From an uncultured Clostridia bacterium (lineage in GTDB: Bacteria > Bacillota > Clostridia > Peptostreptococcales > Anaerovoracaceae), in contig CALBZG010000119.1 of the NCBI GenBank assembly GCA_937889655.1, positions 1 through 50,147 on the forward strand: a stretch of DNA of 50,147 nt. The letters are read 5' to 3'. Below are positions 3,639-47,788 of the stretch, piece by piece. The position numbers and the translations under genes are program-made. How positions within the stretch are numbered: the stretch's first letter is position 1; every line of letters begins with the position of its first letter. The notes under the pieces were generated by a model. It was given only the letters and a program-made list of their open reading frames with translations, ran no database searches and was not told the origin of the DNA.

Positions 3639-3703
3639 CGTTAAATAGCACTCACGAATTGGCGAAGCAACAAATATCGCTCAGAGTTTAGAAGGGTGTA
3701 AAA

Positions 3704-5813: not shown

Positions 5814-6059
5814 ATGGCAATTATTACCGTTGACAAAACATGCTGCAAAGGTTGTGATATTTGTTTTTCAATTTGTCCGAAAAAGCTTTTTGTGCCTTCG
5901 AAAACTAGAAACAGCTATGGAACCAACTTACCTGAGGCCCGAAACCAGGAGGATTGCATCCTATGCGGAATGTGCGAGAGGCTATGCCCGGATGGTGCCA
6001 TCAATGTGATCCGGAGCGAGGATACAAAAACTGGAGGAGAAGAAAAACATGAGGATTAA
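5814..6059 (+). CDS. 4Fe-4S ferredoxin-type (delta) subunit of the oxidoreductase
   Basis: 81 aa with two cysteine motifs (CKGCDICFSICP and CILCGMCERLCP). Translationally coupled to its neighbours. Confidence 0.75.
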   Translation: MAIITVDKTCCKGCDICFSICPKKLFVPSKTRNSYGTNLPEARNQEDCILCGMCERLCPDGAINVIRSEDTKTGGEEKHED

Positions 6060-8050: not shown

Positions 8051-8079
8051 TTGACAAGCAAAGTTTGTAGGTATATATT
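8051..8079 (+). promoter_or_regulatory. Sigma-A-type promoter of the arsR-ATPase operon
   Basis: TTGACA (8051-8056), 17-nt spacer, TATATT (8074-8079). Confidence 0.55.
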
Positions 8080-8109
8080 GAACATATGAACAATTGCTCA
8101 TATGTTCAA
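8078..8109. promoter_or_regulatory. Near-perfect 32-bp palindrome, candidate ArsR/SmtB operator
   Basis: TTGAACATATGA-ACAATTGC-TCATATGTTCAA. It overlaps the -10 box and the transcription start region directly upstream of the ArsR-family gene. Confidence 0.65.
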
Positions 8110-8134
8110 TAATTGCACAGAAAGGGACTGGCCG

Positions 8135-15785: not shown

Positions 15786-15817
15786 ATGGCCGCCCTTGAA
15801 AAGGGGCGGCCATTTTG
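15786..15817 (+). terminator. Intrinsic terminator
   Basis: ATGGCCGCCC-loop-GGGCGGCCAT followed by TTTT. Confidence 0.7.
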
Positions 15818-15896
15818 CTATACTGATGTTTACTTAACGGGATGGATATTTTTTATTCAACACCTGAATTTTACCGAAATTATGCGGAGGCTTTGC

Positions 15897-17483
15897 ATGA
15901 GAAATCGTCTCATAAAACCGCTCGATCAAGATTATACCGAATATCTGCGAGACGAATCACGGGCCACGGGCAGTGCTGAAAGCATTTCCTTTCCCAAAAG
16001 TCCGAGCGATGTCATCTCCATTGTTCAGGAAATGAACAATAAAGGTATCCCTATTACCATTCAGGGTGCCAGGACCGGACTGGCTGCCGGGGCGGTGCCT
16101 TATGGCGGTCATATACTCAACCTATCCGGCATGGATCGTATTTTGGGAATGCGTTGCAGCCACGAGGGCAGATTCTATGTTACCTGCGAGGCCGGTGTGG
16201 TTCTCTCACGACTGAATAAAATTATCGAAAGCAGAAAGTTTAGCACAGCAAGCTGGAACTCAGTATCCAAGGCTGCTTTGCAGGAATTTGCCAATGCAGA
16301 AGAGCAATTTTTCAGTCCGGATCCAACAGAAACCTCCGCAACCATTGGCGGTATGGTGGCCAATAATGCATCGGGAGCCAGAAGCTATCTATACGGATCC
16401 ACCCGGGATCATGTTACCGCCCTACGAGTCGTACTATGCAACGGCGAAACGCTGTTACTCAGAAGGGGAGATATTTTTGCCAGGGGTAGAAGGATTTCCC
16501 TCAAGACGGAGCAGGCAAATAATATCGATGCGCAACTACCATCGTATATTATGCCAAAAACCAAAAATGCAGCAGGCTATTATATCGAAGATGATATGGA
16601 CGCCATCGATCTTTTTATCGGTTCCGGCGGGACTCTGGGGATCATCACGGAAATCGAATTGGAATTGCTGACAAAGCCAAAAGTGATCTGGGGCGTGAAC
16701 TGTTGTTTTGAAGAGGAAAAATGCGCTATCGACTTTGTTCAGGCAGCCAGAACGAAGATGAAGAATATTGCCGCCCTGGAGTTTTATGACGGTTCGTCAC
16801 TGGAGGTCCTGCGCCGTCAAAAGGCGGAGAACCCAGCGTTTTCAAAGCTGCGCACCGTTGATAATAGAATCAGCAGCGTTATTTATGTCGAGCTTCACTG
16901 TGAAAATGAGGAGTGCGCTATCGATAATTTAAATGAAATCGCAGCACAAATGCAAATTTCGGGGGCAAAAAAGGAGGACACTTCTGTTGCCAGGACAGAG
17001 TCCGATCGTGACAGCCTCTACTTTTTCAGGCATGCAATCCCGGAAAGTGTGAATATGCTGATCGATCAGAGGAAAAAAGACAATCCAATCATCAGAAAGC
17101 TGGCTGCGGATATGTCCGTTCCGGATCGGTACCTGTCGGACATCATGGAGATGTACCGTTTTACGCTTGAAAAAAACAATTTGGAATCAGCTATTTGGGG
17201 ACATGTTGGAGACAATCATCTGCATGTGAATATATTGCCCAAAAGCACAGTGGATTATGAAAAAGGGAAAGCATTGTATCAGAAATGGTCTTCTGAAGTT
17301 TCAAAATATGGAGGTGCCGTATCCGCCGAGCATGGCATAGGAAAGTTGAAGACAGACCAGCTGGCGCTGATGTACGGTGCTGAACATATTGAGGAGATGA
17401 GGAAGCTGAAAGCTGCTTTCGACCCAAGGGGGCTGCTTTGCCCCGGCAATTTATTCACCATGGAAGGAGACGGCGGCAAATGA
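15897..17483 (+). CDS. FAD-binding oxidoreductase of the GlcD / D-lactate dehydrogenase family
   Basis: FAD_binding_4-like N-terminus (IQGARTGLAAGAVP, GGMVANNASG) and C-terminal HVGDNHLHVN...SAEHGIGK. Start at ATG 15897 (GGAGG RBS). The track's 37 extra residues translate the upstream terminator. Confidence 0.8.
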   Translation: MRNRLIKPLDQDYTEYLRDESRATGSAESISFPKSPSDVISIVQEMNNKGIPITIQGARTGLAAGAVPYGGHILNLSGMDRILGMRCSHEGRFYVTCEAGVVLSRLNKIIESRKFSTASWNSVSKAALQEFANAEEQFFSPDPTETSATIGGMVANNASGARSYLYGSTRDHVTALRVVLCNGETLLLRRGDIFARGRRISLKTEQANNIDAQLPSYIMPKTKNAAGYYIEDDMDAIDLFIGSGGTLGIITEIELELLTKPKVIWGVNCCFEEEKCAIDFVQAARTKMKNIAALEFYDGSSLEVLRRQKAENPAFSKLRTVDNRISSVIYVELHCENEECAIDNLNEIAAQMQISGAKKEDTSVARTESDRDSLYFFRHAIPESVNMLIDQRKKDNPIIRKLAADMSVPDRYLSDIMEMYRFTLEKNNLESAIWGHVGDNHLHVNILPKSTVDYEKGKALYQKWSSEVSKYGGAVSAEHGIGKLKTDQLALMYGAEHIEEMRKLKAAFDPRGLLCPGNLFTMEGDGGK

Positions 17484-18259
17484 AGATAGCGGTCTGCATC
17501 AAGCAGGTGCCCTCCACCAATGAAGTGAGCATGGATCCGGTGACCAATACGATAATCAGGGACAGTCGTCAATCAGTAACGAATCCTTTTGATACCTATG
17601 CACTGGAACAGGCTGTCCAGCTAAAGGAGAAGCTGGGGGGCGAGGTGATCGCGATAAGCATGGGGATCCCTGGGACAGAGAGGCTTCTTCGGGATGCGGA
17701 AAGCCGCGGAGCTGACAGAGCCGTACTTTTAACTGATCGGGAGTTTGCGGGCGCCGATACGCTGGCAACATCCTATACGCTGGCGCTGGGGATCAAACAA
17801 TTGGGGGATGTGGACCTGATCCTGTGCGGCAAAATGGCAGTGGATGGTGATACCGCCCAGATCGGACCCGAGCTGGCCGAGCAGCTTGGCATTCCACACG
17901 CAACGGATGTTTGTGAGATCTTGGAAGCTGATCCCCAAAAAATCGTATGCCGAAAGAACACGGATTGGGGCACCATGGTATTGAGGATCCAATTGCCTGC
18001 ATTGCTTACGGTTTCAAAGGATATCAATCTGCCGAGACTTCCTTCTATTCCGGGAGTGCTATTTGGATTGACTGCACCCTTTGAGATAAAAGATGCGAAC
18101 AAGCTGGAGGCAGAACCCGGCCGCATTGGCTTGACCGGTTCACCTACGCAGGTCGTCAGCACCTATGTCATGCAGCGACGGAGCGAAGCGCAAAGCATTG
18201 AAGGCGAACCAGGGACTCAAGCGGAAAAAATAAAAAAGCTGATCAAGGAGCTTTTATAA
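17480..18259 (+). CDS. etfB: Electron transfer flavoprotein, beta subunit
   Basis: MKIAVCIKQVPS start and DLILCGKMAVDGDTAQIGP block. The ATGA start/stop overlap with the dehydrogenase gene indicates translational coupling. Confidence 0.85.
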   Translation: MKIAVCIKQVPSTNEVSMDPVTNTIIRDSRQSVTNPFDTYALEQAVQLKEKLGGEVIAISMGIPGTERLLRDAESRGADRAVLLTDREFAGADTLATSYTLALGIKQLGDVDLILCGKMAVDGDTAQIGPELAEQLGIPHATDVCEILEADPQKIVCRKNTDWGTMVLRIQLPALLTVSKDINLPRLPSIPGVLFGLTAPFEIKDANKLEAEPGRIGLTGSPTQVVSTYVMQRRSEAQSIEGEPGTQAEKIKKLIKELL

Positions 18260-18260
18260 C

Positions 18261-19490
18261 ATGTCGAAACTGAAAATAGATCCAAAGAAGTGCACCGGAT
18301 GCGGCGTCTGTGTAAGAAGCTGCAGCTTCAACGCACTCCGGATAGAAGATAATATAGCCAAAGTCAATGAAAATTGCACCCTTTGCGGCATTTGCACAGA
18401 GAGTTGTCCTTTTAATGCGATCAGGATCGAAAAAGAAAGCTTCGGGGGTATGGACGTCTCCCTTTACAGCGGGGTTTGGGTTTTTGCCGAACAACACCAG
18501 GGAGATATCTTACAGGTCGTATATGAACTGCTTGGTAAAGGGAAAGAGATTTCAGAGAAAAAGGTATGCCTTCTGACGGCAGTTCTCTTTGGCGAGAATA
18601 TTAAGGACGAAATACCAAAACTGTTTGCTTATGGAGCCGACAGGGTCATTTATTGCGAAGACCCTGCTCTGAGAATGAACTTGGAAGAGGACCAAACAAG
18701 ACTGTTAGAGCAACTGATTTCAGTGCACAAGCCAGATATATTTCTTTTTGGCGCCACTGGATTTGGACGATCACTGGCTCCAAGAATAGCCGCAAGAGTC
18801 GGAACAGGACTGACAGCGGATTGCACGCAGCTGGATATCGATCCCGAATCAGGATCGTTGCTGCAGACCAGGCCCGCTTTTGGCGGCAACCTCATGGCAA
18901 CGATCATATGCCCGGAGCATCGTCCTCAAATGGCTACCGTTCGTCCCGGCGTAATGCTGGCAAAGGATCCTGAGGACCTGGCAGATGCAGCAGCCGCTTC
19001 AGGGAAGAAACATGAAGTTATCTCATTGCCGTGGATCGATTCGGCACCAAATAAGCAGGGCGTCGAAGTCTTGCAGGAGATCCTGAGTAAAAGGGTAAAC
19101 AGTATTGCCGACGCCGAAATCATCGTTTCTGCCGGCAGGGGTATAGGATCTCAAAAGAACATGACCCTTGTAAAAAGGCTGGCAGAATTGATCGGTGCCC
19201 GGGTGGGCGTGTCAAGACCGCTGGTGGATATCGGATGGAGCGAGTACAAGAATCAAATTGGTCAGACCGGGTCTTCCGTTTCTCCGAAACTGTTGATCAC
19301 CTGCGGTATTTCCGGTTCAGTTCAACATCTTGCGGGAATTGGAAACGCTCATACGATCATCGCGATAAATAGCGATCCGGATGCAGCCATATTTTCTGTG
19401 GCGGATTATAAAGTGGTGGGAGATTGTGTCGAAATCCTCAAGAAGTTGATTGTTGCATTTGAAGAAGGGGATCTTAGTAGCAAGGTATAA
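18261..19490 (+). CDS. etfA: Electron transfer flavoprotein, alpha subunit with an N-terminal 2x[4Fe-4S] ferredoxin domain
   Basis: N-terminal CTGCGVCVRSC and CTLCGICTESCP motifs, then an EtfA body (GRGIG...RPLVD.GW...QIGQTG..V.P.LLITCGISGSVQH). Confidence 0.85.
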   Translation: MSKLKIDPKKCTGCGVCVRSCSFNALRIEDNIAKVNENCTLCGICTESCPFNAIRIEKESFGGMDVSLYSGVWVFAEQHQGDILQVVYELLGKGKEISEKKVCLLTAVLFGENIKDEIPKLFAYGADRVIYCEDPALRMNLEEDQTRLLEQLISVHKPDIFLFGATGFGRSLAPRIAARVGTGLTADCTQLDIDPESGSLLQTRPAFGGNLMATIICPEHRPQMATVRPGVMLAKDPEDLADAAAASGKKHEVISLPWIDSAPNKQGVEVLQEILSKRVNSIADAEIIVSAGRGIGSQKNMTLVKRLAELIGARVGVSRPLVDIGWSEYKNQIGQTGSSVSPKLLITCGISGSVQHLAGIGNAHTIIAINSDPDAAIFSVADYKVVGDCVEILKKLIVAFEEGDLSSKV

Positions 19491-24065: not shown

Positions 24066-24995
24066 TCAGCCACAACGAGCCAACAGCTTTTCCCATTTTG
24101 AGTCAATGTAATTCTGGGTTTCTTCGATCATGCATTCGGTTCCGGGCTCAAACATATGGCTGAATCTGCCCTGCCTGATAAGGAAGTCTTCTACAGGCAG
24201 CTTTTTCTTCGGGCTGTAATTAAGCTTCCAGATCCCTTCTTCGATTTCATAGAGAGGCCATACGCAGGTTTCCACAGCCAGCTTGCAGATGTCCGCAATA
24301 TCTTCCGTTTCATAGCGCCATCCTCGGGGACAAGGGGACAGAATGTTCAAAAAGGCAGGTCCCTTTGTATAAATAGCCTTACGGGATTTTTCGTGAAGAT
24401 CCTTAAAATTACTCAGAAAAGTGGTCTGAGCCGCATAAGGGATGTCATGGGCGGCAACGATGGCCGTCAGATCCTTTTTGTTTTGGAATTTACCCGGGAC
24501 CACAGAGCCTACCGGGGTTGTGGTGGCATCTGCGAAACGCGGAGTCGAGGATGACCTCTGTATACCGGTGTTCATATAGGCTTCATTGTCGTAGCAGACA
24601 TAAACCATGTCATGCCCGCGCTCCAGGGCCCCGGACAATGATTGTATGCCGATATCGTATGTACCTCCGTCGCCTCCAAAAGCAATGAACTTATAGTTTT
24701 CCTCGATTTTTCCGCGCTTTTTCAATACTCTGTAAGCGGCTTCGACACCGCCTGCTGTGGCGCCGGCATTTTCAAATGCGCTGTGGATGTAGCTGTCCGT
24801 ATAGGCAGTATAAGGATATAAAAAAGTGGATACCTCAAGACAGCTGGTGGCATTGACGACCACCGCTTTATCTTCCGGATCAAGGGCTCTTAAGACTCCG
24901 CGAACAGCGATAGCGGCGCCGCAGCCTGCGCATAAACGATGGCCGCCCACAAGGCGCTCTGGTTTTGCTGCTTCATTTTTCAGATTGTAGGCCAT
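24066..24995 (-). CDS. Pyruvate / 2-ketoisovalerate-type 2-oxoacid:ferredoxin oxidoreductase, beta (TPP) subunit
   Basis: N-terminal CAGCG motif and GGDGGTYDIG TPP motif. Last gene of a gamma-delta-alpha-beta operon. Confidence 0.85.
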   Translation of the reverse strand: MAYNLKNEAAKPERLVGGHRLCAGCGAAIAVRGVLRALDPEDKAVVVNATSCLEVSTFLYPYTAYTDSYIHSAFENAGATAGGVEAAYRVLKKRGKIEENYKFIAFGGDGGTYDIGIQSLSGALERGHDMVYVCYDNEAYMNTGIQRSSSTPRFADATTTPVGSVVPGKFQNKKDLTAIVAAHDIPYAAQTTFLSNFKDLHEKSRKAIYTKGPAFLNILSPCPRGWRYETEDIADICKLAVETCVWPLYEIEEGIWKLNYSPKKKLPVEDFLIRQGRFSHMFEPGTECMIEETQNYIDSKWEKLLARCG

Positions 24996-26191
24996 TATTT
25001 AAGCACCCCCTCTTCCCTTTGTCCTAAATGTCTATAGATCTTTCCCGTTTGCCCAGTCTTAACGATACTTTCCAGTTCTCTAAAGATAAATTTAAAGTCC
25101 TCTACCCGGATATCCCGACCGCCCAGGCCGTAGACATAATTGATGGATTTAGGACGAACATCCAGATCGTATAAGGCCGAACGGGTCTCAGCGAAAAGAG
25201 GGCCTCCGCAGGCGGAGAATCCTTCACACTTGTCCATAACGGCGATAGCTTTAACGTGGGCTAACGCCTCGGCCAGCTCCTCCATTGGGAAAGGCCTGAA
25301 CACCCGTATCTTGATCAAACCAACTTTATTGCCGGAGCTGCGCAACTCCCTGATAGCCTCTTTGGCGGTGCCGGCGCTGGAGCCGATGACCACGATGGCG
25401 GTCTCAGCATCTTCCATCATGTATTCTTCAAAAAAGCCATAGCTTCTGCCAGTCAGTTTTTCAAAATCTTTCGCGACGGACAGGATGACGCTTTTTGCGT
25501 TTTTCATAGCCTCGGCTTGAAGGATCTTGTGATCCATATAGTAGGCGGATATGTCGTAGGGACCTACGGCAAGAGGGTTTTCTTTTTTCAGCAGATAGTG
25601 CTCAGGCTCGTAATGGCCAACAAAACGCTTCACATCATCGTCTTCCAACAGTTCTATATTTTCCACAGCATGGCTGGTGATAAAGCCGTCCTGACAAACC
25701 ATCACCGGCAGTCTGACCGACTTGTTTTCTCCGATGGGCATGGCCATTATAAAGTTATCGTAAGCTTCCTGATTCGACTCGGAATAAAGCTGGATCCAGC
25801 CGCTGTCCCGGGCTCCCATAGAATCGGAATGATCGTTATTGATGTTGATCGGACCCGTCAAAGCCCGGTTTACAAGTGCCATGGTAACAGGCAGTCTGGC
25901 GGAAGCAGTTACATATAGCATTTCCCACATAAAAGCCATTCCGGCGGAGGAAGTCGCTGTAACCGCTCTGGCACCTGCCGCCTGAGCAGCAAAACAGGTG
26001 GACATGGCGCTGTGTTCTGATTCTACCGCTACAAATTCCGTATCGACTTCTCCGTTGGCTACATAACCCGAAAAATATTGTGGGATCTCTGTGGAGGGTG
26101 TTATGGGAAATGCCCCCATAACATCGGGATTGATTTGCTTCATAGCAATGGCTACAGCTTCGTTGCCTGATAGTCTTTCTTTGATACTCAT
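24995..26191 (-). CDS. 2-oxoacid:ferredoxin oxidoreductase, alpha subunit
   Basis: GNEAVAIAMKQINPDVMGAFPITPSTEI block and a PorA/VorA-like length of 398 aa. Confidence 0.85.
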   Translation of the reverse strand: MSIKERLSGNEAVAIAMKQINPDVMGAFPITPSTEIPQYFSGYVANGEVDTEFVAVESEHSAMSTCFAAQAAGARAVTATSSAGMAFMWEMLYVTASARLPVTMALVNRALTGPININNDHSDSMGARDSGWIQLYSESNQEAYDNFIMAMPIGENKSVRLPVMVCQDGFITSHAVENIELLEDDDVKRFVGHYEPEHYLLKKENPLAVGPYDISAYYMDHKILQAEAMKNAKSVILSVAKDFEKLTGRSYGFFEEYMMEDAETAIVVIGSSAGTAKEAIRELRSSGNKVGLIKIRVFRPFPMEELAEALAHVKAIAVMDKCEGFSACGGPLFAETRSALYDLDVRPKSINYVYGLGGRDIRVEDFKFIFRELESIVKTGQTGKIYRHLGQREEGVLK

Positions 26192-26195
26192 AGGA

Positions 26196-26510
26196 TCAAG
26201 CTTCCTCCTTTACGAAGGTTATGGCATTGACAGGGCAGATCTTAAAACAGATACCGCAGCCTTTGCAATGCATCAGATCAAAATCAAGACGCCGACCGCC
26301 AACGACGGGGATCGAGCTGTCCGGGCAAAACGGATAGCACAACATGCAGTGAGTGCACTTTTCCTCATGAAAAATCGGCCTCATCGTTCTCCAGGAGCCG
26401 GTGTCAACAAGGATGGAGGTTCCACCCTCGTAGATTTCTCCGCCAGGTGTTAGTTTTTGCCATGGAGTCGTTTCGTTAATATCTTTTGCTCTTGTTGTCA
26501 TCCTGCACAA
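26196..26510 (-). CDS. 2-oxoacid:ferredoxin oxidoreductase, delta (2x[4Fe-4S]) subunit
   Basis: CTHCMLCYPFCP and CKGCGICFKICP motifs. 104 aa. Confidence 0.8.
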   Translation of the reverse strand: MCRMTTRAKDINETTPWQKLTPGGEIYEGGTSILVDTGSWRTMRPIFHEEKCTHCMLCYPFCPDSSIPVVGGRRLDFDLMHCKGCGICFKICPVNAITFVKEEA

Positions 26511-27127
26511 ACCTCCTCCAGGGATTTATAGATTGCTTTCATATTGCCTTCCACTACATGGGGTTTCGATGCAAATTTATGTCTGAAGGAACTTTCCATA
26601 TCCGCAAGAAATTTTTCTCTTTCAATCACATTGCTCACTTTTACCGTAGCAGCCAGCATTGGGGTATTCGGAAAATTCTTCCCCAGGGTTTCTTCTGAGA
26701 TCCTTCTGGCATCGATAGAGTATATCTTCCCTTTGTAGCCTTTCAGCAGTGGCCGAAGCTCGTGAGGTTTTTTATCGCTGTTGATGATGACGGCACCGGT
26801 TTCTTTTAAACCTTGGGTCACATCCACGGTCGAAAGCAGCGTTTCGTCGACAACCACGACATAGTCAGGGTTATATATATTTGAGTGTACGGAACATTTG
26901 CTTTCGCTTATGCGATTATATGCCGTGATGGGTGCGCCCATTCTTTCTGGGCCGTATTCAGGAAAGCCCTGTACTTGCTTTCCCGAACTGAACGCTACAT
27001 CCGCCAGCAGCAGACATGCCGTCTTAGCGCCTTGACCACCGCGGCCATGCCATCTTATTTCAATGACGTCTTTCTCCTGATTTTCCTTAAGATTGTCATT
27101 TGGCTGATTTTCAATTTCTTTCATCAT
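26498..27127 (-). CDS. 2-oxoacid:ferredoxin oxidoreductase, gamma subunit
   Basis: IRWHGRGGQGAKT...YGPERMGAP block. GGAG RBS. First gene after the T-box leader. Confidence 0.8.
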   Translation of the reverse strand: MMKEIENQPNDNLKENQEKDVIEIRWHGRGGQGAKTACLLLADVAFSSGKQVQGFPEYGPERMGAPITAYNRISESKCSVHSNIYNPDYVVVVDETLLSTVDVTQGLKETGAVIINSDKKPHELRPLLKGYKGKIYSIDARRISEETLGKNFPNTPMLAATVKVSNVIEREKFLADMESSFRHKFASKPHVVEGNMKAIYKSLEEVCAG

Positions 27128-27149
27128 CTCTGCTCCTTCTTGCGATACT

Positions 27150-27380
27150 GAATAAAAAAGCTTCCGTCCTGCAGAGGACGAAAGCTTAGACTTTCGCTAT
27201 ACCACCTTTAACTGCATACCAACATACGCGCTCCCTGTAACGGGGGAAACCGGCTAAGCTTACTGTTATTTCAGCTTGCGACTCAGGAGTGATTTTCGCA
27301 CATTATCTACTAGTATCGGGCTTCCACCTTCCCCGATTCGCTGTGACCTTTGAATAAGACTACTCTCTCCGTCATTGTCT
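27150..27380 (-). promoter_or_regulatory. T-box leader (tRNA-sensing transcription attenuator), probable Ile specifier AUC
   Basis: On the minus-strand RNA I see these elements. A K-turn/GA motif (AAUGA...UGA). An S-turn AGUA paired with GAA. An AG-bulge AGCGA. A distal loop GGUGGAA. A specifier loop GCGAAA-AUC-A-CUCC (AUC at 27293-27291). An F-box CCGUUA (27243-27238). The T-box sequence AAAGGUGGUAUAGCG (27209-27195). A terminator AAGCUUUCGUCC-UCUGCA-GGACGGAAGCUU-UUUUAUU (27187-27151), just before the RBS. Confidence 0.85.
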
Positions 27381-27407
27381 TTAATATTATGAAATTCATT
27401 ACAATTG

Positions 27408-27436
27408 ATGATAAAGTATGGACTGAGTTTTGTCAA
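27408..27436 (-). promoter_or_regulatory. Sigma-A promoter driving the T-box leader
   Basis: Minus strand: TTGACA (27436-27431), 17-nt spacer, TATCAT (27413-27408). Confidence 0.6.
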
Positions 27437-27665
27437 GACGTTTGTTGTGGATAGAGTACAACAATATCGCGATTTATTTGTGTATAAAGCCAAGCAATCG
27501 TTGTGAAAATAGAAACAACTATTGACATCATAAAATATAGCGTATAATATATATAAATTAAATATAATATAAATCATAAATACAGCTCAATACTTGTGGC
27601 AATGTGTAAAATAATCTAAAAAAAAACATATACAAGATATAAAACCATCAAAAAAGGGGATTATC

Positions 27666-38099: not shown

Positions 38100-38174
38100 G
38101 GGCGATTAACTCAGCGGGAGAGTGCTACCGTCACAAGGTAGAAGTCGTTGGTTCGAACCCAATATCGCCCACCA
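38100..38174 (+). tRNA. tRNA-Val, anticodon CAC
   Basis: Manual cloverleaf: acceptor GGGCGAU/AUCGCCC, D arm ACUC-AGCGGGA-GAGU, anticodon arm CUACC-GUCACAA-GGUAG, variable loop AAGUC, T arm GUUGG-UUCGAAC-CCAAU, discriminator A, encoded CCA. Confidence 0.85.
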
Positions 38175-38185
38175 TATAGAGAAAT

Positions 38186-39343
38186 ATGAAAACAATTTCC
38201 ACCGGACAGCAGAATACAAGATCAGGGAACCGATATGGACGATCAGAGTGGGCAGGTGCCTTTGGGGACCTCGGAACTCTGATTCCTTTTATTGTTGGGT
38301 ATATCAGCATAGTAAGAATGGATCCCCGTGGAGTTCTTTTTATGCTGGGTATACTGCTGATTGGATCAGGGCTTTACTATAAGACACCGATCCCGGTACA
38401 GCCAATGAAAGCCATCGGTGCAGCCGCCATAGCTTCATCCGGGGCAATCACGCCGGGAATGATATGGGGAGCAGGTCTGTTTACGGGTGTCTTCTGGCTC
38501 TCTTTGGGATTGTCCGGCCAGTTGGTTAAAGTATCGAAAATTGCATCCAAGCCTGTTCTAAGAGGAATCGTTCTGGGATTGGGACTCTTGTTTATGATGG
38601 ACGGGTTAAATATGATGAGGAAAGATTTCCTCGTCGCAGGCATCGCTCTTTTACTGACATTTGCGCTTCTTAAGAATAAAAAAGTACCTGCAATGTTTGT
38701 CTTGCTTATATTCGGTATGACTGCCGCAGTCCTCCGTAACCCTGCTTTTTTAGCGGAAATTTCAAAAATAAATCTGGATATTCAAATGCCTGAAGTAGCG
38801 CTAGGAAAGATTACTGTTCAGGAAATAATAAAAGGCATTTTACTTCTTGGGATTCCGCAGATCCCTTTGACTTTCGGAAATGCTGTCGTCGCAATCACTT
38901 CCGAAAACAACCGGTTGTTCCCTGCGCATCCGGTAAATGAAAACAAAATCGCGATATCCCAGGGGATTATGAATCTGATTTCACCACTTTTTGGCGGGAT
39001 CCCGGTTTGTCACGGCGCCGGCGGTATGGCAGGCCATGTTCGATTTGGTGCAAGAACCGGAGGAGCTCTTGTTATTTTAGGAGGGATACTCCTTGCAACA
39101 GGAATTTTCTTTGGCAGTTCTGTACTGTTGATTTTTGAAATATTTCCGCAAAGCGTGCTTGGTGTAATTTTATTTTTTGCAGGGCTGGAGCTTGCGGCCC
39201 CGGTCTGGAATGCCGGCATGGAAAGAAAAGATCAATATCTGCTGCTTGTTACGGCGGTTTTCTCGTTGTGGAATATCGGAATCGGATTCGCTGTCGGATT
39301 GATCCTGCAGGAACTATTTAATAGAAAATGGATCGATATCTGA
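38186..39343 (+). CDS. Putative sulfate/molybdate transporter (MOT / SulP-related family membrane protein)
   Basis: The N-terminal SEWAGAFGDLGTLIPF block resembles the MOT family. About 10 hydrophobic segments. The ATG lies only 11 nt after the tRNA CCA end. Confidence 0.6.
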   Translation: MKTISTGQQNTRSGNRYGRSEWAGAFGDLGTLIPFIVGYISIVRMDPRGVLFMLGILLIGSGLYYKTPIPVQPMKAIGAAAIASSGAITPGMIWGAGLFTGVFWLSLGLSGQLVKVSKIASKPVLRGIVLGLGLLFMMDGLNMMRKDFLVAGIALLLTFALLKNKKVPAMFVLLIFGMTAAVLRNPAFLAEISKINLDIQMPEVALGKITVQEIIKGILLLGIPQIPLTFGNAVVAITSENNRLFPAHPVNENKIAISQGIMNLISPLFGGIPVCHGAGGMAGHVRFGARTGGALVILGGILLATGIFFGSSVLLIFEIFPQSVLGVILFFAGLELAAPVWNAGMERKDQYLLLVTAVFSLWNIGIGFAVGLILQELFNRKWIDI

Positions 39344-39431: not shown

Positions 39432-39506
39432 GGGCGATTAACTCAGCGGGAGAGTGCTACCTCGACAAGGTAGAAGTCGTTGGTTCAAATCCAATATCGC
39501 CTACCA
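39432..39506 (+). tRNA. tRNA-Val, anticodon GAC (non-canonical C33)
   Basis: Same cloverleaf as the first copy. Differences: anticodon loop UCGACAA, T loop UUCAAAU, and a G1-U72 wobble (acceptor 3' strand AUCGCCU). Encoded CCA. Confidence 0.8.
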
Positions 39507-39582: not shown

Positions 39583-40812
39583 TCAAGGAGCATTGCAGTA
39601 CTTGCCCATAAACAAGATGCTTCCGGTAGCTTCTTCTTCGATCAGGAAAAGGAATGGCCGATCGGCAATGAAAGTGACAGGCTCCTGCGCAGCGGTCTCG
39701 GCAACGATCACAACAGTGACCCCGGCAGCTTCGCTGCCTTCTTCATTGACTTCTATAACTGCCTTGTGTAAAACTTCGCTTATGAATAATCCCTCGCGGA
39801 TCCCCGACAGGTCCGCTTCTGCCGAAAAAGGCAGCTCCATGCCCATCGCGATAAGCGAGTCGTTCAATTTTTTGATCCCGTACTCCATTTTGAACTTCGG
39901 TACTTGAAGCAGAACATCTTCGGTGTTCTTTAAAGTATCTTTAACACTATTAAACTTATCGGAATCCATGGTCCGAATAAAGGAATCGATATCCTGACCG
40001 GCTTCCGGAAGGATAAAATACATGGCAGTTTTACCTTCCCCGTAAGGCAGCCTGACCGCTTTGTAATCATAGCCTTCTCCATATTCCACTTCGCCTTTCA
40101 TACTCATCATATCGATTGTTTGGAAACCGTCGATGCCATTAAAATCCGTCTGAAAAGTATCCTCTATATTGAACTGAGCCGCCCATTCGCCTTTGAAGTA
40201 AACCGCATTGATCAAGTACATAACGACTTGATCCGGGATAGGCGGATCGATCATTTTATCTATTTTCCCTTTCGTTGACTCTTTGATCCATTTATTAATG
40301 GCGTTGACAGTTTCCGGATCAGAAAAATCAGCCTCTTTGACCTCTGCATCAAAAACGTTTTGATTTGTGGAAATGAATTCTTCTTTGATCGCTTCGCCCT
40401 GCCGGTACCAGATAGAATTGCATATGTTCAGTTCCACTTTCTTGTCGGTTTGCGATAGATAAGGCAATAGGTTGCTATAAGTTTCATTTACTTCATGGAT
40501 TATGAGGCCTTCATATCGCAGCCCCTTTTCCATTTGCGCCAGTGTGTCTCCTAAAGCGCCGTTATAGGTCATGGTAAGTGCCGTGGAAATGCTCAAAGGC
40601 GATATAAATATATTCTCAGCCTTTTCCTCCCTGTTGATTTCTCTGAATATGTCAAAGGCGAAATCAACGTTTCGACCAGTCACCTCGTTATTGATTTTAT
40701 TTAGATCATAACTCTTGTCATTCTCAGTGTTTTGACTGCATCCCGCGGTAACAGCCACCATCATGATTAGGCCCAATAACAAAACAACGGGTTTTTTTAT
40801 ATTGATTTTCAT
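39583..40812 (-). CDS. Serpin-family protease inhibitor, lipoprotein
   Basis: Lipobox signal peptide (VTAGC). Serpin hinge and reactive-centre loop EEGSEAAGVTVVIVAETAAQEP. C-terminal signature FIADRPFLFLIEE...ILFMGK. Confidence 0.85.
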   Translation of the reverse strand: MKINIKKPVVLLLGLIMMVAVTAGCSQNTENDKSYDLNKINNEVTGRNVDFAFDIFREINREEKAENIFISPLSISTALTMTYNGALGDTLAQMEKGLRYEGLIIHEVNETYSNLLPYLSQTDKKVELNICNSIWYRQGEAIKEEFISTNQNVFDAEVKEADFSDPETVNAINKWIKESTKGKIDKMIDPPIPDQVVMYLINAVYFKGEWAAQFNIEDTFQTDFNGIDGFQTIDMMSMKGEVEYGEGYDYKAVRLPYGEGKTAMYFILPEAGQDIDSFIRTMDSDKFNSVKDTLKNTEDVLLQVPKFKMEYGIKKLNDSLIAMGMELPFSAEADLSGIREGLFISEVLHKAVIEVNEEGSEAAGVTVVIVAETAAQEPVTFIADRPFLFLIEEEATGSILFMGKYCNAP

Positions 40813-40922
40813 GTTGACACCCCCCTTGATACTTTAGACAGGTTAGAACGATTTTTTGTTTCATCCACCTTCAGAAGCTTTATGCCGCGGCCGAATGAAA
40901 CATCATTTCGCGATTGCCAGGT

Positions 40923-40951
40923 TTGACAAATCCATTATACTATACTACAAT
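40923..40951 (+). promoter_or_regulatory. Sigma-A promoter of the six-gene Ehr/Hyf-like operon
   Basis: TTGACA (40923-40928), 17-nt spacer, TACAAT (40946-40951). Confidence 0.6.
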
Positions 40952-40993
40952 GAAAAAGCTTGCGGCTATTTGCAGCAGGAAAGTTCGGAGGGG

Positions 40994-43048
40994 ATGGACA
41001 TCGGAATGGAAGTTTTTCAAACCGTGGTGCTATTAAAATCATCATTTGCGTTATTGGGCATTGCCGCAGTTATAGCTCTTATTGCTTCCGGCAAGCAAAA
41101 ATTCTGCAATCTATCAGTTAACATGATATGCATCGTGTCATCCATTTTAATGATGGCAGCTTCCGGATTCATCATATTGTCAGAAAACCAATTTGTTAAA
41201 ATTCATATTTTTGATACCGCTATTCCTTTTCTGTCTTTAGAGCTGGCTGTTGATGGGCTTTCCGCCCTTTTCCTTCTGATCTTGTCTATTCTGGTATTTT
41301 GCATATCGGTGTATTCCATCGGCTACATATCCCATTACTTCGGGAAGCGAAATGTAGGCCTTTTTTATTTCCTTTATTCAACCTTCATCTTATCGATGGC
41401 TTTGGTATTTACATCATCAAATGCAGTATTTTTCTATATTTCGTGGGAAGCCATGTCTGTGCTCTCTTATTTTCTGGTGATTTTCGAATCGGAGATCGAG
41501 AAAAATCAGAAAGCCGGAATTTTATATATTGTCATGACCCATATCGGAACAGCCTTTTTGCTTATAGGGTTTATGATCTCATACAGCTTTACCGGATCTT
41601 TTGATATCACCGGCAGCTCTCAGGCGATACCTGAAGGGGCTAAAAATATTATTTTCATTCTGTATTTGCTTGGTTTTTGTACGAAGGCCGGTGCGATACC
41701 GGTACACATTTGGCTTCCATATGCCCATCCGGCGGCCCCAAGTAACGTATCGGCGCTTATGTCGGGAGTCATGATCAAAACGGCCATTTATGGCCTTGTC
41801 CGTTTTGTCATGGAATTTCTTGGAGTGCAGCATACATGGTGGGGCGTGCTGATTATTGTTATTGGGGTTTTGTCAGCTTTCCTTGGAGTAGCCTATGCTC
41901 TGATGGAGCACGACATGAAGAGGTTGCTGGCTTATCATAGTGTAGAGAATATCGGCATCATTTTAATCGGTCTGGGGATCAGTTTTATCTCCTTTAATGG
42001 GGGGAACACCATTATCGGGTCGATGGCATTGACGGCTTCTCTGCTCCACACCTTGAACCATGCGCTTTTTAAAGGCGGATTATTTTTGGGCGCCGGCTCC
42101 ATCCATTATGCGACGCATACAAAAGATATTGAAAAATTAGGAGGCCTGATCCGAACGATGCCTGTTACGGCACTATTCGTGCTTTGCTTTTCTCTGGCCA
42201 TTTCGGCAATCATTCCCTTCAATGGTTTTGTAAGCGAGTGGCTTACATTTTTATCGATATTCACTTATGTTGCACCTGGGCAGGCAGGCATCAACATCAT
42301 ACTGATTATAGCTGTTGCCACCCTCGGCATGGCCGGAGCATTGGCCGCTGCATGCTTTGTGAAGTTTTATGGCATCTCTTTTCTCGGACTTCCCAGAACT
42401 AATCAGGCCGCAGAAGCCAGAGAAGTTTCTGCTCCAATGAATATCGCCATGGGCATCATAGGGGGTATTTGCCTTCTAATAGGACTATTACCGATGCAGG
42501 CAATCAGAACGATCGACAAAGTTACTTTCAGCTTGACTGGCGCATCCTCCGTAACCCAGTTGGGCCAAGGGTTTATCGATCCTTGGATCTCACTGGATAA
42601 TACCGGTAGCTCGATATCTCCTGCAGAAATTTTTGCTGCTCTCGCAGTCGTGTCGCTGTTGACGCTCATAGCCGTCAGGATCATCGGAGGAAAGTATCTT
42701 GAACGGAGATATGGCTCCTGGGATTGTGGATTTGAAGCATTGAATCCCAGAATGCAATATACAGCCACCGGGTTTTCAAAGCCAATAAAAATCGTTTTTA
42801 GGATATTATTCAGACCTTCAAGAAAAACGGAGCTCAAGGGTGGATCAAGATACCAGCCTGATGAAATCGAATACACTACAACCTCTGAATCCATTTTTGA
42901 GAAATATGCATACAGGCCGGCTTTTCAGCAAATAATAACCTTTTCAAGAAGAGCCAAGTTTTTTGTTCAAACGGGTAAAATACATAACTATTTGATATAT
43001 ATTTTTATCGCCGTATTAGCTTTGATGGCCTACAACAGATTTGTTTAG
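40994..43048 (+). CDS. NuoL/HyfB-like antiporter-type membrane subunit
   Basis: Large polytopic protein with the ND5/HyfB block WLPYAHPAAPSNVSALMSGVMIKTAIYG. The start is ATG 40994 or 41006, after a GGAGGGG RBS. The track's N-terminal extension is unlikely to be real. Confidence 0.8.
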   Translation: MDIGMEVFQTVVLLKSSFALLGIAAVIALIASGKQKFCNLSVNMICIVSSILMMAASGFIILSENQFVKIHIFDTAIPFLSLELAVDGLSALFLLILSILVFCISVYSIGYISHYFGKRNVGLFYFLYSTFILSMALVFTSSNAVFFYISWEAMSVLSYFLVIFESEIEKNQKAGILYIVMTHIGTAFLLIGFMISYSFTGSFDITGSSQAIPEGAKNIIFILYLLGFCTKAGAIPVHIWLPYAHPAAPSNVSALMSGVMIKTAIYGLVRFVMEFLGVQHTWWGVLIIVIGVLSAFLGVAYALMEHDMKRLLAYHSVENIGIILIGLGISFISFNGGNTIIGSMALTASLLHTLNHALFKGGLFLGAGSIHYATHTKDIEKLGGLIRTMPVTALFVLCFSLAISAIIPFNGFVSEWLTFLSIFTYVAPGQAGINIILIIAVATLGMAGALAAACFVKFYGISFLGLPRTNQAAEAREVSAPMNIAMGIIGGICLLIGLLPMQAIRTIDKVTFSLTGASSVTQLGQGFIDPWISLDNTGSSISPAEIFAALAVVSLLTLIAVRIIGGKYLERRYGSWDCGFEALNPRMQYTATGFSKPIKIVFRILFRPSRKTELKGGSRYQPDEIEYTTTSESIFEKYAYRPAFQQIITFSRRAKFFVQTGKIHNYLIYIFIAVLALMAYNRFV

Positions 43049-43066
43049 GAGGCATTTGGAGGGTAA

Positions 43067-44026
43067 ATGAACTATTTGATATATATGGTATTGCAAATAA
43101 CAGTGATCATCGTCTTCGCTCCACTGATCAGCGGTGTGATAAGAAAGATCAAGGCGCTTTCCCAAAAACGAAAAGGCGCGCCTGTTTTTCAGATGTATTA
43201 TGATCTTCATAAACTGTTTAGAAAGACATCCGTCGTTTCGGAAACTTCGTCGTGGATTTTTAAAGCTGCACCTTACGTTTTTTTTTCAACAGCTGTTACA
43301 GCAGCTTTACTGGTGCCTGTATCGACGTTGATCCCCCAACCTTCGAGTCTGCCGGGAGATTTTATCGTTATGGTTTCCGTATTAGCATTGGGAAGATTTT
43401 TTATGATGCTGGCCGGGCTTGACACCGGAAGCACTTTCGGCGGCATGGGAAGCAGCAGAGAGGCTTTGATATCCTCTCTGATAGAACCGTCGATTCTGGT
43501 CTCTCTCTTTACAATAGCACTTATTACCGGGTCCACCTCCCTCTCAAGGATCCTATTCGTCGTAAACAGCAGTGAAAACCAGCTGCCGCTTCAGGTATCC
43601 ATATTGATATTCCTTGCTTTGCTGGTAATCATCATTGCAGAAACAGCCCGGATACCGGTAGACGATCCTTCCACCCATTTGGAGCTTACCATGGTTCATG
43701 AAGCTATGATCCTTGAATACTCCGGAAGACATCTTGCATTGATGGAATATGGCGCAGCCGTCAAACAGTTGACATTGATCACGCTGCTGGTCAATATTTT
43801 ACTTCCTTTCGACGGAATGATTTCACAAACCGGCATGATGGCCATCCTGCTGTCCTTGCTATTTTATGCAGCAAAGGTGCTCATGGCAGCGGTCCTGATT
43901 GCATTGATCGAGATAAATTGTGTAAAGCTTAAGCTTTTCAGCATACCTAATCTTGCCGCACTGGCCTTTATCCTTTCCTTTGTGGCATTTTTACAATTTT
44001 TTGTTCTGGGAGGCAACCATGTCTGA
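43067..44026 (+). CDS. NuoH/HyfC/HycD-like membrane subunit
   Basis: 319 aa and polytopic. The block ETARIPVDDPSTHLELTMVHEAMILEYSG is typical of HycD/HyfC. Confidence 0.8.
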   Translation: MNYLIYMVLQITVIIVFAPLISGVIRKIKALSQKRKGAPVFQMYYDLHKLFRKTSVVSETSSWIFKAAPYVFFSTAVTAALLVPVSTLIPQPSSLPGDFIVMVSVLALGRFFMMLAGLDTGSTFGGMGSSREALISSLIEPSILVSLFTIALITGSTSLSRILFVVNSSENQLPLQVSILIFLALLVIIIAETARIPVDDPSTHLELTMVHEAMILEYSGRHLALMEYGAAVKQLTLITLLVNILLPFDGMISQTGMMAILLSLLFYAAKVLMAAVLIALIEINCVKLKLFSIPNLAALAFILSFVAFLQFFVLGGNHV

Positions 44027-44678
44027 TTTATTTGATACGCTTTCAGTGCTGATCCTGATGACTGCCTTTGTTTTGATGGCAAATAAAAAAGTCAAGGCCT
44101 ATATTAAAACCTTTCGCGTACAATCTGCACTGATCGCTCTCTCAGCCGGTATTCTGGGTGTCGAAGCCATTATGGATGAAGGACGTTATGATCTCATGGT
44201 GGTCTGCGTACTGATCGTAGTTCTAAAAGTGATCTATATTCCCGGCTTACTGCATAAAACTTATGCCGGTATCGAATACAGAACAGAAAAAGATTTCATA
44301 CTCAACATTCCAATATTGGTATTAATAAGCTGCAGTCTTGTAGTATTCACATATTTTTCGTTTTCAGCAAGCGGCTTCGGCGTCAACGGTAGCGTCATCG
44401 ATCTTCAACTTGTGAATACGATATCGGTCACAATGATCGGACTTCTTTTTATGATCACCAGGAAAAAAGCCATAGGTCAGATCATAGGATTTCTGGAGGT
44501 TGAAAACGGGATATTCATAACAGCGATGTTTTCCACCCAGGGGATGCCTTTTATCGTCGACATGGGGATCTTCATCGATATGCTGACGGCTGTGATGATC
44601 ATGGGTGTGCTGGTCTTTAAAATCAACGTTACATTTGAATCGATCAATACCGACAGGTTGAACAAACTGAAAGGATAA
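44019..44678 (+). CDS. HyfE-like membrane subunit (NuoK-related C-terminus)
   Basis: The start ATG 44019 (GGGAGG RBS) overlaps the upstream stop by 8 nt. The block QIIGFLEVENGIFITAM is typical of HyfE. Confidence 0.75.
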   Translation: MSDLFDTLSVLILMTAFVLMANKKVKAYIKTFRVQSALIALSAGILGVEAIMDEGRYDLMVVCVLIVVLKVIYIPGLLHKTYAGIEYRTEKDFILNIPILVLISCSLVVFTYFSFSASGFGVNGSVIDLQLVNTISVTMIGLLFMITRKKAIGQIIGFLEVENGIFITAMFSTQGMPFIVDMGIFIDMLTAVMIMGVLVFKINVTFESINTDRLNKLKG

Positions 44679-44689
44679 AAGGCCAGACA

Positions 44690-46162
44690 ATGAGTTTTCT
44701 GATTCTTGCAGTACCGGTAATCGCCGCGCTGCTGATGATAACCAACAGAATTATTAGGAGAATGCATATAATCAGCCTGGCAGCTTCCGGAACAATGCTG
44801 GTATCCGCAATTCCCATCACAAGCGATATTTTAGCTTTTGGGAAAATAGAATCTTCGTTCATGGGGGGATTCCTATATTTGGATGCGCTCAGCGTGATCG
44901 TATTGGATATCGTCGTGTTGATCGGTTTTTTGGCCTGCATATATTCTGTTGGATATCTGAAACGCGAAATCCTTCTGGGGGCATTTGACTTTAAGAGGGT
45001 CCGGCTTTATTATGTCCTAATGTTTTCCTTCATGTTTACAATGCTGCTGGCCCTTTCGGTCAAAAATGTCGGCATCATGTGGATCGCAATTGAAGCAACG
45101 ACTCTGGCCTCGGCATTTCTTGTGGGTTTCTATAACGACAGATATGCCCTTGAAGCCGCCTGGAAATATATCATGATCTGCTCTGTCGGCATTGCCTTGG
45201 CAATGCTGGGGATCATATTTCTGAACCTTTCAGCCATGGCCGCCTTGGACAGTTCAGCGCAGCTCGACTGGACAGCTCTGATGGATAACGCCGGCAGCCT
45301 GAAACCCTCATCCGTCAGGCTTGCCTTTATTTTCATCCTTGTGGGTTTCGGGACAAAGGCAGGACTGGCGCCTATGCATACATGGCTGCCGGATGCCCAT
45401 AGCCAGGCGCCTGCACCAATAAGTGCGCTGCTTTCCGGTGTGCTGCTTAATAGTGCAATGTATGGAATCATTCGAATCACTGCTGTGACCAATAAAAATA
45501 TGGGAAGCAGTGAATTCTCCGGCAACTTGCTGATTCTCCTTGGCATGCTTTCTATTCTGACCGCAAGCGTTTTCATTCTGACCCAAAAAGATTATAAAAG
45601 ACTGCTAGCCTATTCCAGTATCGAGCACATGGGGATCATTGCCGTTGCTATAGGTTTTTTTACACCGGCGTCTATATTCGGCGGGTTGTTTCATATGCTC
45701 AATCACTCGCTGACAAAATCCATGCTTTTTTTCTGCTCCGGCACCATCCTTCAGAAATACGGCACAAGGCAAATTACGAAAATCAAAGGCGCCATCAAGC
45801 TCCTTCCCTATACAGGTACAGCATTTTTGCTTGGATTGTTTGCCATTGCGGGAACGCCTCCGTTCAGCATTTTTGCAAGTGAATTCAGCATAATGTCAGC
45901 AATTTTCAAAGAGGGGGATTTCATCATCGGCTCTGTTCTTATCATGCTGCTGGCTTTTGTTTTCGCAGGCATCGCCATAGCTTTATTCAGGATTTTTTAC
46001 GGGACAAGCAGCATGGAAACACCACAGCCTGGCGAAATCAATATCCCGGGAACTATAGCCGCCTTGATCCTTCTGCTCATGATAAGTACCATGGGGCTGC
46101 TGATACCGGAACAATTGAAGGAATTGCTTCATAATGCGCAAAATATCATATACGGATCATAA
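44690..46162 (+). CDS. NuoM/N / HyfF-like antiporter-type membrane subunit
   Basis: 490 aa with the block GLAPMHTWLPDAHSQAPAPISALLSGVLLNSAMYG. Confidence 0.8.
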   Translation: MSFLILAVPVIAALLMITNRIIRRMHIISLAASGTMLVSAIPITSDILAFGKIESSFMGGFLYLDALSVIVLDIVVLIGFLACIYSVGYLKREILLGAFDFKRVRLYYVLMFSFMFTMLLALSVKNVGIMWIAIEATTLASAFLVGFYNDRYALEAAWKYIMICSVGIALAMLGIIFLNLSAMAALDSSAQLDWTALMDNAGSLKPSSVRLAFIFILVGFGTKAGLAPMHTWLPDAHSQAPAPISALLSGVLLNSAMYGIIRITAVTNKNMGSSEFSGNLLILLGMLSILTASVFILTQKDYKRLLAYSSIEHMGIIAVAIGFFTPASIFGGLFHMLNHSLTKSMLFFCSGTILQKYGTRQITKIKGAIKLLPYTGTAFLLGLFAIAGTPPFSIFASEFSIMSAIFKEGDFIIGSVLIMLLAFVFAGIAIALFRIFYGTSSMETPQPGEINIPGTIAALILLLMISTMGLLIPEQLKELLHNAQNIIYGS

Positions 46163-46195
46163 CCGGGGAAATCCCGTTGAAAGGAACGAAATATC

Positions 46196-47776: not shown

Positions 47777-47788
47777 AGGAAGAAAACC

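Follow-up and report, generated by a model that had tools for sequence, protein, structure and literature searches.

The window analyzed here, a 50,147-nucleotide stretch of contig CALBZG010000119.1 from an uncultured Clostridia bacterium of the Anaerovoracaceae, carries on its minus strand an operon predicted to encode a four-subunit 2-oxoacid:ferredoxin oxidoreductase (OFOR). The leader of this operon is a complete T-box with an isoleucine codon as its specifier, and the same leader, with the same codon, precedes orthologous operons that all fall within one clade of the enzyme family. We interpret the arrangement as a T-box(Ile) switch that would induce an oxidoreductase running in the synthase direction, with a tentative lean toward the carboxylation of propionyl-CoA to 2-oxobutyrate; for this reading we estimate a probability of about 0.4. 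The broader proposition, that the T-box-marked clade consists of dedicated anabolic isoleucine OFORs and contains the gene behind the "alpha-ketobutyrate synthase" activity or the 2-methylbutyrate carboxylation described between 1969 and 1984, we consider probable.

Leader architecture and specifier codon

The leader was aligned to the Rfam T-box model RF00230 using permissive filters. The segment at 27384-27171 on the minus strand scored 87.2 bits over model positions 1-219, which is the whole model, with an E value of 2.3e-19 in a local search and 1.2e-17 when the whole window was searched on both strands against all families. The elements of the leader, all on the minus strand, are as follows, where conservation refers to an alignment of 38 leaders described below.

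27436-27408 (-): sigma-70-type promoter, -35 TTGACA at 27436-27431, 17-nt spacer, -10 TATCAT at 27413-27408; 11/12 match to consensus
27384-27171 (-): T-box leader (Stem I, Stem II, IIA/B pseudoknot, Stem III, antiterminator), from the RF00230 alignment
27378-27282 (-): Stem I, from the RF00230 and 38-leader alignments
27375-27372 (-): AUGA of the K-turn (AUGA/UGA), a Stem I motif
27364-27361 and 27297-27295 (-): S-turn (AGUA/GAA) in the specifier loop, a Stem I motif
27342-27338 (-): AG bulge AGCGA, aligned to consensus, columns conserved
27328-27322 (-): distal loop GGUGGAA, aligned to consensus (GGUGNRA), columns conserved
27293-27291 (-): specifier AUC (Ile); next in the 3' direction are the conserved purine A27290 and the helix CUCC at 27289-27286
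27243-27238 (-): F-box CCGUUA, aligned to consensus
27209-27195 (-): T-box sequence AAAGGUGGUAUAGCG, aligned to consensus
27204-27201 (-): UGGU bulge within the T-box sequence; predicted partner, the tRNA 3' end ACCA
27187-27158 (-): intrinsic terminator, 13-bp G+C-rich hairpin with a U-run to 27151
27138-27133 (-): ribosome-binding site AAGGAG, preceding the gamma start ATG at 27127

The AG bulge and the distal loop would together form the platform of Stem I on which the tRNA elbow docks, and GGTGGT is invariant in the 38-leader alignment. A 103-amino-acid open reading frame on the minus strand (27266-27577) that overlaps the leader was dismissed as spurious: it would start upstream of the promoter and extend across Stem I.

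A default Rfam scan of the window reported no T-box because the score of the leader is below the RF00230 gathering score of 93 bits. Orthologous OFOR leaders score 69 to 86 bits on the same model, and the ileS leader of the same lineage (L132), which has a verified ileS downstream, reaches 87.8 bits. Since this authentic ileS leader also fails the threshold, the gathering score is too strict for this lineage. The window leader is a full-length T-box of the transcriptional class and an ordinary member of that class.

The specifier can be read with some precision. In the covariance-model alignment, the 3' strand of the specifier loop reads GAA-A-AUC-A and sits immediately above the GGAG/CUCC helix. 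ATC is invariant in 38/38 genome leaders upstream of the OFOR operon, while the base preceding it is A, T, G or C; this rules out the -1 register, in which the AAU specifier would become UAU, GAU or CAU. Nine of nine OFOR-linked metagenome leaders also carry ATC, giving 47/47 complete leaders. The register was validated by a scan of metagenome contigs for GGAGANAGTA, 55 to 80 nt, and GAA-NNNN-A-CTCC-N-GAG, a pattern in which the flanks were fixed and the codon was left free. The 120 matches were distributed as follows, the ileS assignments at the ATC loci being based on open reading frames that cluster with verified ileS (TIGR00392, 969 to 977 bits).

ATC, 99/120: OFOR gamma downstream in 9 loci, ileS-clustering open reading frame in 67 loci
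TTC, 14/120: pheS downstream
ACC, 3/120: thrS downstream
GAC, 2/120: hisS (hisS-aspS type) downstream in the one locus checked
CTC, 1/120: leuS downstream
AAA, 1/120: no downstream assignment

Because the triplet in the slot agrees with the downstream synthetase (ileS, leuS, pheS, thrS, hisS) under the same flanks, the slot is the specifier position, and the specifier of the window leader is AUC, for isoleucine. None of the 120 metagenome matches had a non-isoleucine specifier ahead of an OFOR operon. The UGGU bulge further predicts that the cognate tRNA has A as its discriminator base. There is no tRNA-Ile gene within the window, the sole tRNAs of which are Val-CAC and Val-GAC.

The promoter is the best consensus match in the region and is located ~24 nt ahead of the point where the T-box model starts, leaving a leader of ~250 nt downstream of it. 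The 5' arm of the terminator overlaps the 3' arm of the antiterminator. The terminator has a folding energy of -19.1 kcal/mol (z = -5.4), against only about -10 kcal/mol for the antiterminator segment, and since it is the more stable of the two, the default state is expected to be "off," as in classical T-boxes. By the established T-box mechanism, the 13-bp terminator would form by default before the ribosome-binding site and keep the operon off. Uncharged tRNA-Ile(GAU) would pair through its anticodon with AUC and through its free ACCA end with UGGU, which would stabilize the antiterminator and allow RNA polymerase to read into the gamma-delta-alpha-beta operon; charged Ile-tRNA would be unable to make the second, UGGU contact. 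The enzyme would in this way be produced when isoleucine is scarce.

A preliminary description of this locus, made from the letters and open reading frames, had claimed that the leader bears all the hallmarks of a T-box, with an AUC specifier and a strong terminator immediately before the ribosome-binding site, ahead of a four-subunit OFOR operon. These claims hold up well. Each motif that it listed was found in its place on the minus strand and aligned to consensus, the 13-bp hairpin and its U-run lie just ahead of AAGGAG, and the covariance-model search that it proposed as a check aligned RF00230 over the full length of the leader, although below the gathering score. The specifier assignment is strengthened by the invariant AUC next to a variable -1 base and by the agreement between slot and synthetase in the control leaders, and the operon assignment by subfamily models scoring above their cut-offs (TIGR02175 and TIGR02179; see below).

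Conservation and distribution of the leader

A scan with the alpha subunit, using one genome per species, yielded the 80 closest loci, at 64 to 83% identity, and in all 80 the gene order is gamma-delta-alpha-beta. A sequence profile of the leader, run on these loci, recovered it immediately ahead of gamma in 37/80, all in other genomes; in one further locus of the 80, the leader copy is interrupted by the contig end. The leader also precedes the operon on 9 metagenome contigs. The Rfam structure was then projected onto the alignment of 38 leaders and pairs were counted, with slid partners as the control. In the antiterminator form, 80% of cells were paired, against 36 to 51% with slid partners, and 18 pairs were changed on both sides (91 cells). 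The terminator was 93% paired, against 35 to 56%, with compensatory change at 6 pairs, and the Stem IIA/B pseudoknot was 97.9% paired, against 33 to 71%, with a change from CG to UA on both sides in 7 sequences. The K-turn is closed by a GC pair in 20 leaders, by AU in 16 and by UG in 2, and the distal helix of Stem I has 4 pairs with compensatory change. The core of Stem III is invariant and so carries no covariation information. The presence of the same leader ahead of orthologous operons, together with these compensatory changes, indicates that the leader is more than a chance resemblance. Large insertions in the Stem II region were seen in three leaders (L034:235-593, up to about 130 nt; L010:4519-4800; L011:4771-5039), in all of which Stem I, the specifier and the antiterminator are intact. 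Leaders of ileS score 90 to 160 bits against the profile of the OFOR leader, and the OFOR leader is a paralogue of the ileS leaders.

In a neighbor-joining tree of concatenated alpha and beta subunits (74 sequences), every T-box-linked operon is located in one clade. The hosts of this clade are Anaerovoracaceae, which include the closest relatives of the window, Clostridium aminobutyricum, Emergencia, Butyricicoccus/Intestinibacillus and Oscillospiraceae, as well as Peptococcaceae, Syntrophomonadaceae, Pelotomaculum and Gelria. The sister clades include sequences of the Clostridium drakei/thailandense type, Fusibacter, Cetobacterium and various other Clostridia, and no T-box was detected by Rfam at E <= 0.01 in nine representative loci from them. 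Given that the sister clades lack the T-box and that the organism of the window has a second OFOR, the T-box marks a specialized OFOR paralogue. Four T-box-less Clostridium loci (L015, L020, L033 and L041, ~70% identical) instead have a gene for a sigma-54-dependent, PrdR-like activator upstream (~3500-4950 in L015). Activators of this kind are typical of amino-acid catabolic operons, and their presence suggests catabolic, substrate-induced control in the sister clade.

Three loci with the labels Chitinophagales, Bacteroidaceae and Desulfosudis (L031, L035 and L064) have operons and leaders that nest within Syntrophomonadaceae or Lentihominibacter and probably represent mis-binned contigs of metagenome-assembled genomes rather than horizontal transfer. 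One T-box-less locus (L070:3070-3186) has a near-perfect hairpin of ~115 nt just upstream of gamma, which gave spurious miRNA matches.

Direction and substrate of the oxidoreductase

The genes were identified with NCBIfam and Pfam models, and the operon is taken to consist of four genes because the next gene downstream of beta is convergent. The delta open reading frame overlaps gamma by 13 nt, and the beta start overlaps the alpha stop (ATGA).

27127-26498 (-): gamma subunit, 209 aa; TIGR02175 PorC_KorC, 207 bits (cut-off 81); PF01558
26510-26196 (-): delta subunit, 104 aa, 2x[4Fe-4S] ferredoxin-like; TIGR02179 PorD_KorD, 96.9 bits (cut-off 60); Fer4
26191-24995 (-): alpha subunit, 398 aa; POR_N and PFOR_II; closest solved structure 9bt4_B
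24995-24066 (-): beta subunit, 309 aa, thiamine pyrophosphate-binding; PF02775; closest structure 9bt4_C

These matches predict a gamma-delta-alpha-beta enzyme of the Por/Vor type but do not single out a substrate. All four NCBIfam equivalogs for pyruvate synthase PorABCD scored below cut-off (PorA_Arch for PorA, 479 against 550; PorB, 351 against 405; PorC, 177 against 270; PorD, 100 against 120), as did the Vor models (alpha, 344 against 646; beta, 293 against 405; delta, 73 against 166). The conserved pocket residues are Thr31, Arg109, Ile115 and Ile117 in alpha and Val55 and Asn142 in beta, at positions equivalent to Thr31, Arg114, Leu121, Ile123, Ile843 and Asn996 of DaPFOR, which is the pyruvate type. 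As a guide to substrate, these positions were rejected as uninformative, since all 74 family members have the same residues there, whether or not a T-box is present.

The resemblance to pyruvate enzymes raises the question of whether the operon encodes an ordinary pyruvate synthase, the product of which would reach isoleucine by an indirect path, via the citramalate route and acetohydroxyacid synthase, with the T-box tuning an extra copy. The best model and structure matches are indeed pyruvate enzymes with identical pocket residues, and when Syntrophomonas grows on even-chain fatty acids, it has to derive its pyruvate from acetyl-CoA. However, no subunit reaches the Por equivalog cut-offs, and the organism of the window has at least one further OFOR. 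Pyruvate also serves alanine, valine, leucine, gluconeogenesis and other needs, so that control by a single amino acid in 47/47 leaders from several families would be odd, and we consider this explanation improbable.

The direction of the enzyme is suggested by its regulation. The T-box targets in the regulon surveys that were searched all raise the supply or charging of the cognate amino acid, and an OFOR induced by isoleucine starvation would on that basis most simply make an isoleucine precursor. The enzyme would then run as a synthase, combining an acyl-CoA, CO2 and reduced ferredoxin into an isoleucine-specific 2-oxoacid. We lean slightly toward propionyl-CoA as the substrate, which an "alpha-ketobutyrate synthase" activity would convert to 2-oxobutyrate for the subsequent IlvBN, IlvC, IlvD and IlvE steps. 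Carboxylation of propionyl-CoA to 2-ketobutyrate is a documented isoleucine route in anaerobes (PMC7476758). The subunits score higher on Por than on Vor models, the closest structure (9bt4) is that of a pyruvate enzyme and the small PFOR-type pocket is kept; the control is by isoleucine only, never by valine or leucine, in all 47 leaders, whereas characterized VORs accept all three branched-chain oxoacids (10.1101/401489; PMC12873857). The T-box hosts, moreover, include propionate oxidizers and fatty-acid oxidizers.

The same switch could also serve an enzyme that carboxylates 2-methylbutyryl-CoA to 2-oxo-3-methylvalerate, one transamination from isoleucine, in a salvage of the rumen type. 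The regulatory evidence applies to it unchanged, and the route has no need of ilvBNCD, which would suit auxotrophs. Some Syntrophomonas handle 2-methylbutyryl-CoA, and formation of 2-oxo-3-methylvalerate from 2-methylbutyrate in rumen bacteria and Clostridium sporogenes was reportedly described by Robinson and Allison in 1969 and by Monticello in 1984. The Anaerovoracaceae and other amino-acid fermenters among the hosts live amid branched-chain fatty acids, and branched-chain oxoacids are substrates of some four-subunit enzymes of this superfamily, such as the C. sporogenes VOR encoded by CLOSPO_00146-00149 (10.1101/401489; PMC12873857). On the other side are the higher Por-type than Vor-type scores, the retention of small pyruvate-type pocket residues, the absence of a valine or leucine specifier ahead of the operon when known VORs are promiscuous for the oxoacids of all three amino acids, and the lack of a linked branched-chain aminotransferase or acyl-CoA-forming gene in the loci seen. 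We regard the arguments for 2-oxobutyrate over this route as weak and rank 2-methylbutyryl-CoA as a close second, somewhat unlikely in itself.

The preliminary description had proposed 2-methylbutyryl-CoA and 2-oxo-3-methylvalerate as the substrate pair, which the Por-over-Vor scores, the PFOR-type pocket and the isoleucine-only control do not select. It had also argued that an enzyme controlled by isoleucine starvation should work in biosynthesis and not in catabolism, a reasonable argument that gains strength from conservation in ~47 loci and from the confinement of the T-box to one enzyme clade. Its suggestion that the regulation would assign a probable substrate class can be kept for the pathway, isoleucine, and not for the substrate.

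Several observations weigh against our interpretation as a whole. The leader falls short of the Rfam gathering score (87.2 against 93 bits), and some members of its own clade, namely the Lentihominibacter/Allocopromorpha subgroup, L051 and L069, lack the T-box; these absences look like secondary losses. In L064 (4977-5089) the T-box is decayed, and the profile matches no more than its initial ~40 nt and its terminator segment; the region from distal Stem I to Stem III has been deleted, and the operon is otherwise intact. The operon shows no consistent linkage to an ilv gene, a CoA ligase or an aminotransferase, and no ilv genes were found in the flanks examined. Family members that lack the T-box have the same canonical pocket residues. 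No signature in the sequences tells the candidate substrates apart, and there is no sequence model for 2-oxobutyrate synthase or 2-oxo-3-methylvalerate synthase, which are defined by their activity. The margin of Por over Vor scores is a poor guide, and OFOR specificity deviates from phylogeny (PMC12873857).

A further alternative is a broad-specificity or catabolic enzyme with a T-box that either serves some purpose other than isoleucine supply or survives as the decaying relic of a leader of the ileS type. The paralogy with ileS leaders, the loss or decay of the T-box in some lineages, such as L064, and the apparent catabolic-type sigma-54 control of close family members are all in keeping with such a history. 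The window leader is intact, however, and across a wide phylogenetic distance compensatory changes preserve all the helices and the specifier does not vary, which argues for purifying selection rather than decay. There is also no evident logic in inducing a catabolic enzyme when isoleucine is scarce. We consider this the least probable of the explanations and a very unlikely one.

Gene neighborhoods were also considered as a source of information on the substrate and set aside, as the flanks are variable and give no consistent clue among related loci. DAHP synthase and prephenate dehydrogenase are recurrent neighbors in Anaerovoracaceae. In 18 Syntrophomonas-type loci (L022:8191-9108 and 17 others, 15/18 with a T-box), a conserved open reading frame of about 305 aa directly 3' of beta may be a fifth gene of the operon; it has weak CbiT-like methyltransferase similarity and no Pfam match below 1e-10. 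The Gelria locus (L055:1-5100) is the only one with an acyl-CoA-forming enzyme adjacent to the operon: a second, three-gene OFOR and a CoA-transferase of the acetyl-CoA hydrolase/transferase family (3251-4699) lie directly upstream of the T-box operon. Two other riboswitches were encountered, a molybdenum cofactor (Moco)/tungsten riboswitch 4 kb downstream of a Syntrophomonas operon (L038:12093-12222) and a cobalamin riboswitch near the ileS locus (L132:1-154).

Elsewhere in the window, the second OFOR is encoded by three plus-strand genes directly after genes of the histidine-degradation type; a role in histidine/glutamate fermentation as an enzyme of the 2-oxoglutarate type is possible. A plus-strand cluster at 40856-48571 (Mrp-antiporter-like, NuoH-like, NuoCD-like and NuoB-like genes) constitutes an Ech/Mbh-type ferredoxin-dependent membrane complex, consistent with a ferredoxin-centered energy metabolism, and the arrangement at 15786-19490 resembles electron-bifurcating lactate/acyl dehydrogenase-Etf modules. 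The remaining features noted in the window are listed with these.

750-2012 (+): amidohydrolase
2085-2723 (+): formiminotransferase-cyclodeaminase C-domain protein
2742-3638 (+): glutamate formiminotransferase
3704-4954 (+): second OFOR, alpha
4947-5810 (+): second OFOR, beta
6049-6594 (+): second OFOR, gamma
8052-8118 (+): FourU RNA thermometer match flanked by genes for an AIR-carboxylase-like protein and a P-type ATPase, 42.2 bits against a gathering score of 60, E 7e-5, which may well be chance
15786-19490 (+): FAD-linked oxidase gene, then an EtfB-like gene and an EtfA-like gene whose product has a ferredoxin domain at its N terminus
38100-38174 (+): tRNA-Val (CAC)
38186-39343: MOT1-family (molybdate-transporter-like) gene, between the two tRNA genes
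39432-39506 (+): tRNA-Val (GAC), nearly identical to the first
39583-40812 (-): bacterial serpin gene, following the tRNA-Val/MOT1 stretch on the opposite strand

Relation to known T-box targets and oxidoreductases

OFOR paralogues are very hard to annotate, and whether they act in the catabolic or the anabolic direction is unreadable from their protein sequences. An RNA sensor with a readable codon offers an independent functional label, isoleucine supply, for a whole clade of these enzymes, and the clade so labelled spans syntrophic fatty-acid and propionate oxidizers, amino-acid fermenters and gut Clostridia. It points to a specific candidate gene for a ferredoxin-dependent route to isoleucine known for decades as an activity only, and the conserved link between T-box and OFOR makes it testable which gene carries out the ferredoxin-dependent carboxylation in anaerobic isoleucine synthesis. 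If the broader proposition holds, many Clostridia, syntrophs and gut anaerobes would use the enzyme in place of threonine deaminase and the citramalate route or in addition to them, and metabolic models of auxotrophy and of cross-feeding on propionate or 2-methylbutyrate would improve.

The biochemical precedent is the ferredoxin-dependent "alpha-ketobutyrate (2-oxobutyrate) synthase" activity, which PMC7476758 traces to Buchanan 1969, Monticello 1984, Eikmanns 1983 and Sauer 1975. Like the reaction proposed here, it is a ferredoxin-dependent reductive carboxylation to an isoleucine precursor in anaerobes, for which an OFOR is the expected enzyme class. It is known physiologically and biochemically only, whereas the window offers a candidate gene cluster with isoleucine-specific control. 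In its treatment of the propionyl-CoA route, PMC7476758 names no gene, and in engineering work from 2026 the promiscuous nifJ served as the "alpha-ketobutyrate synthase" (PMC12879463).

Among characterized enzymes, the C. sporogenes VOR/"porA" (CLOSPO_00146-00149) is, like the window enzyme, a four-subunit member of the bacterial Por/Vor group, and it acts on isoleucine-related 2-oxoacids. In contrast to the role proposed here, it is catabolic, serving branched-chain fatty acid production, and takes the valine, leucine, isoleucine and some aromatic oxoacids (10.1101/401489; PMC12873857); no T-box has been reported for it, and it is absent from the 80 closest relatives of the window enzyme. The best structural relative is PDB 9bt4, a four-subunit pyruvate:ferredoxin oxidoreductase (alpha, 307 bits; beta, 264 bits) with identical canonical pocket residues. 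It is a pyruvate enzyme, whereas the window subunits lie below the Por equivalog cut-offs and under isoleucine-specific control.

On the regulatory side, the surveys searched list only synthetases, canonical biosynthetic enzymes and transporters as T-box targets. No OFOR (por, vor or kor) was found among the targets in Wels 2008, the RegPrecise survey with its regulon tables and supplements (PMC3766115), the TBDB paper or a Clostridium difficile riboswitch review, although an earlier mention elsewhere is possible, and no literature combining T-box, ketoisovalerate and ferredoxin was found among searchable papers. The nearest relatives of the leader are the ileS T-box leaders of Clostridia and other Bacillota, which have the same architecture, AUC specifier, UGGU bulge and terminator/antiterminator switch but precede an isoleucyl-tRNA synthetase rather than an OFOR operon. 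In Bacillus subtilis, the T-box of ilvBHC-leuABCD likewise gates enzymes that raise branched-chain amino-acid supply when the tRNA is uncharged; that operon encodes the canonical acetohydroxyacid pathway and is listed as a leucine T-box regulon in the RegPrecise table (PMC3766115), whereas the operon in the window combines an isoleucine specifier with a ferredoxin-dependent OFOR. The riboswitch class, anabolic OFORs and the isoleucine-route activities were all already known, and the OFOR operon is a new member of the T-box regulon; the unusual part is the target of the T-box and not the RNA itself.

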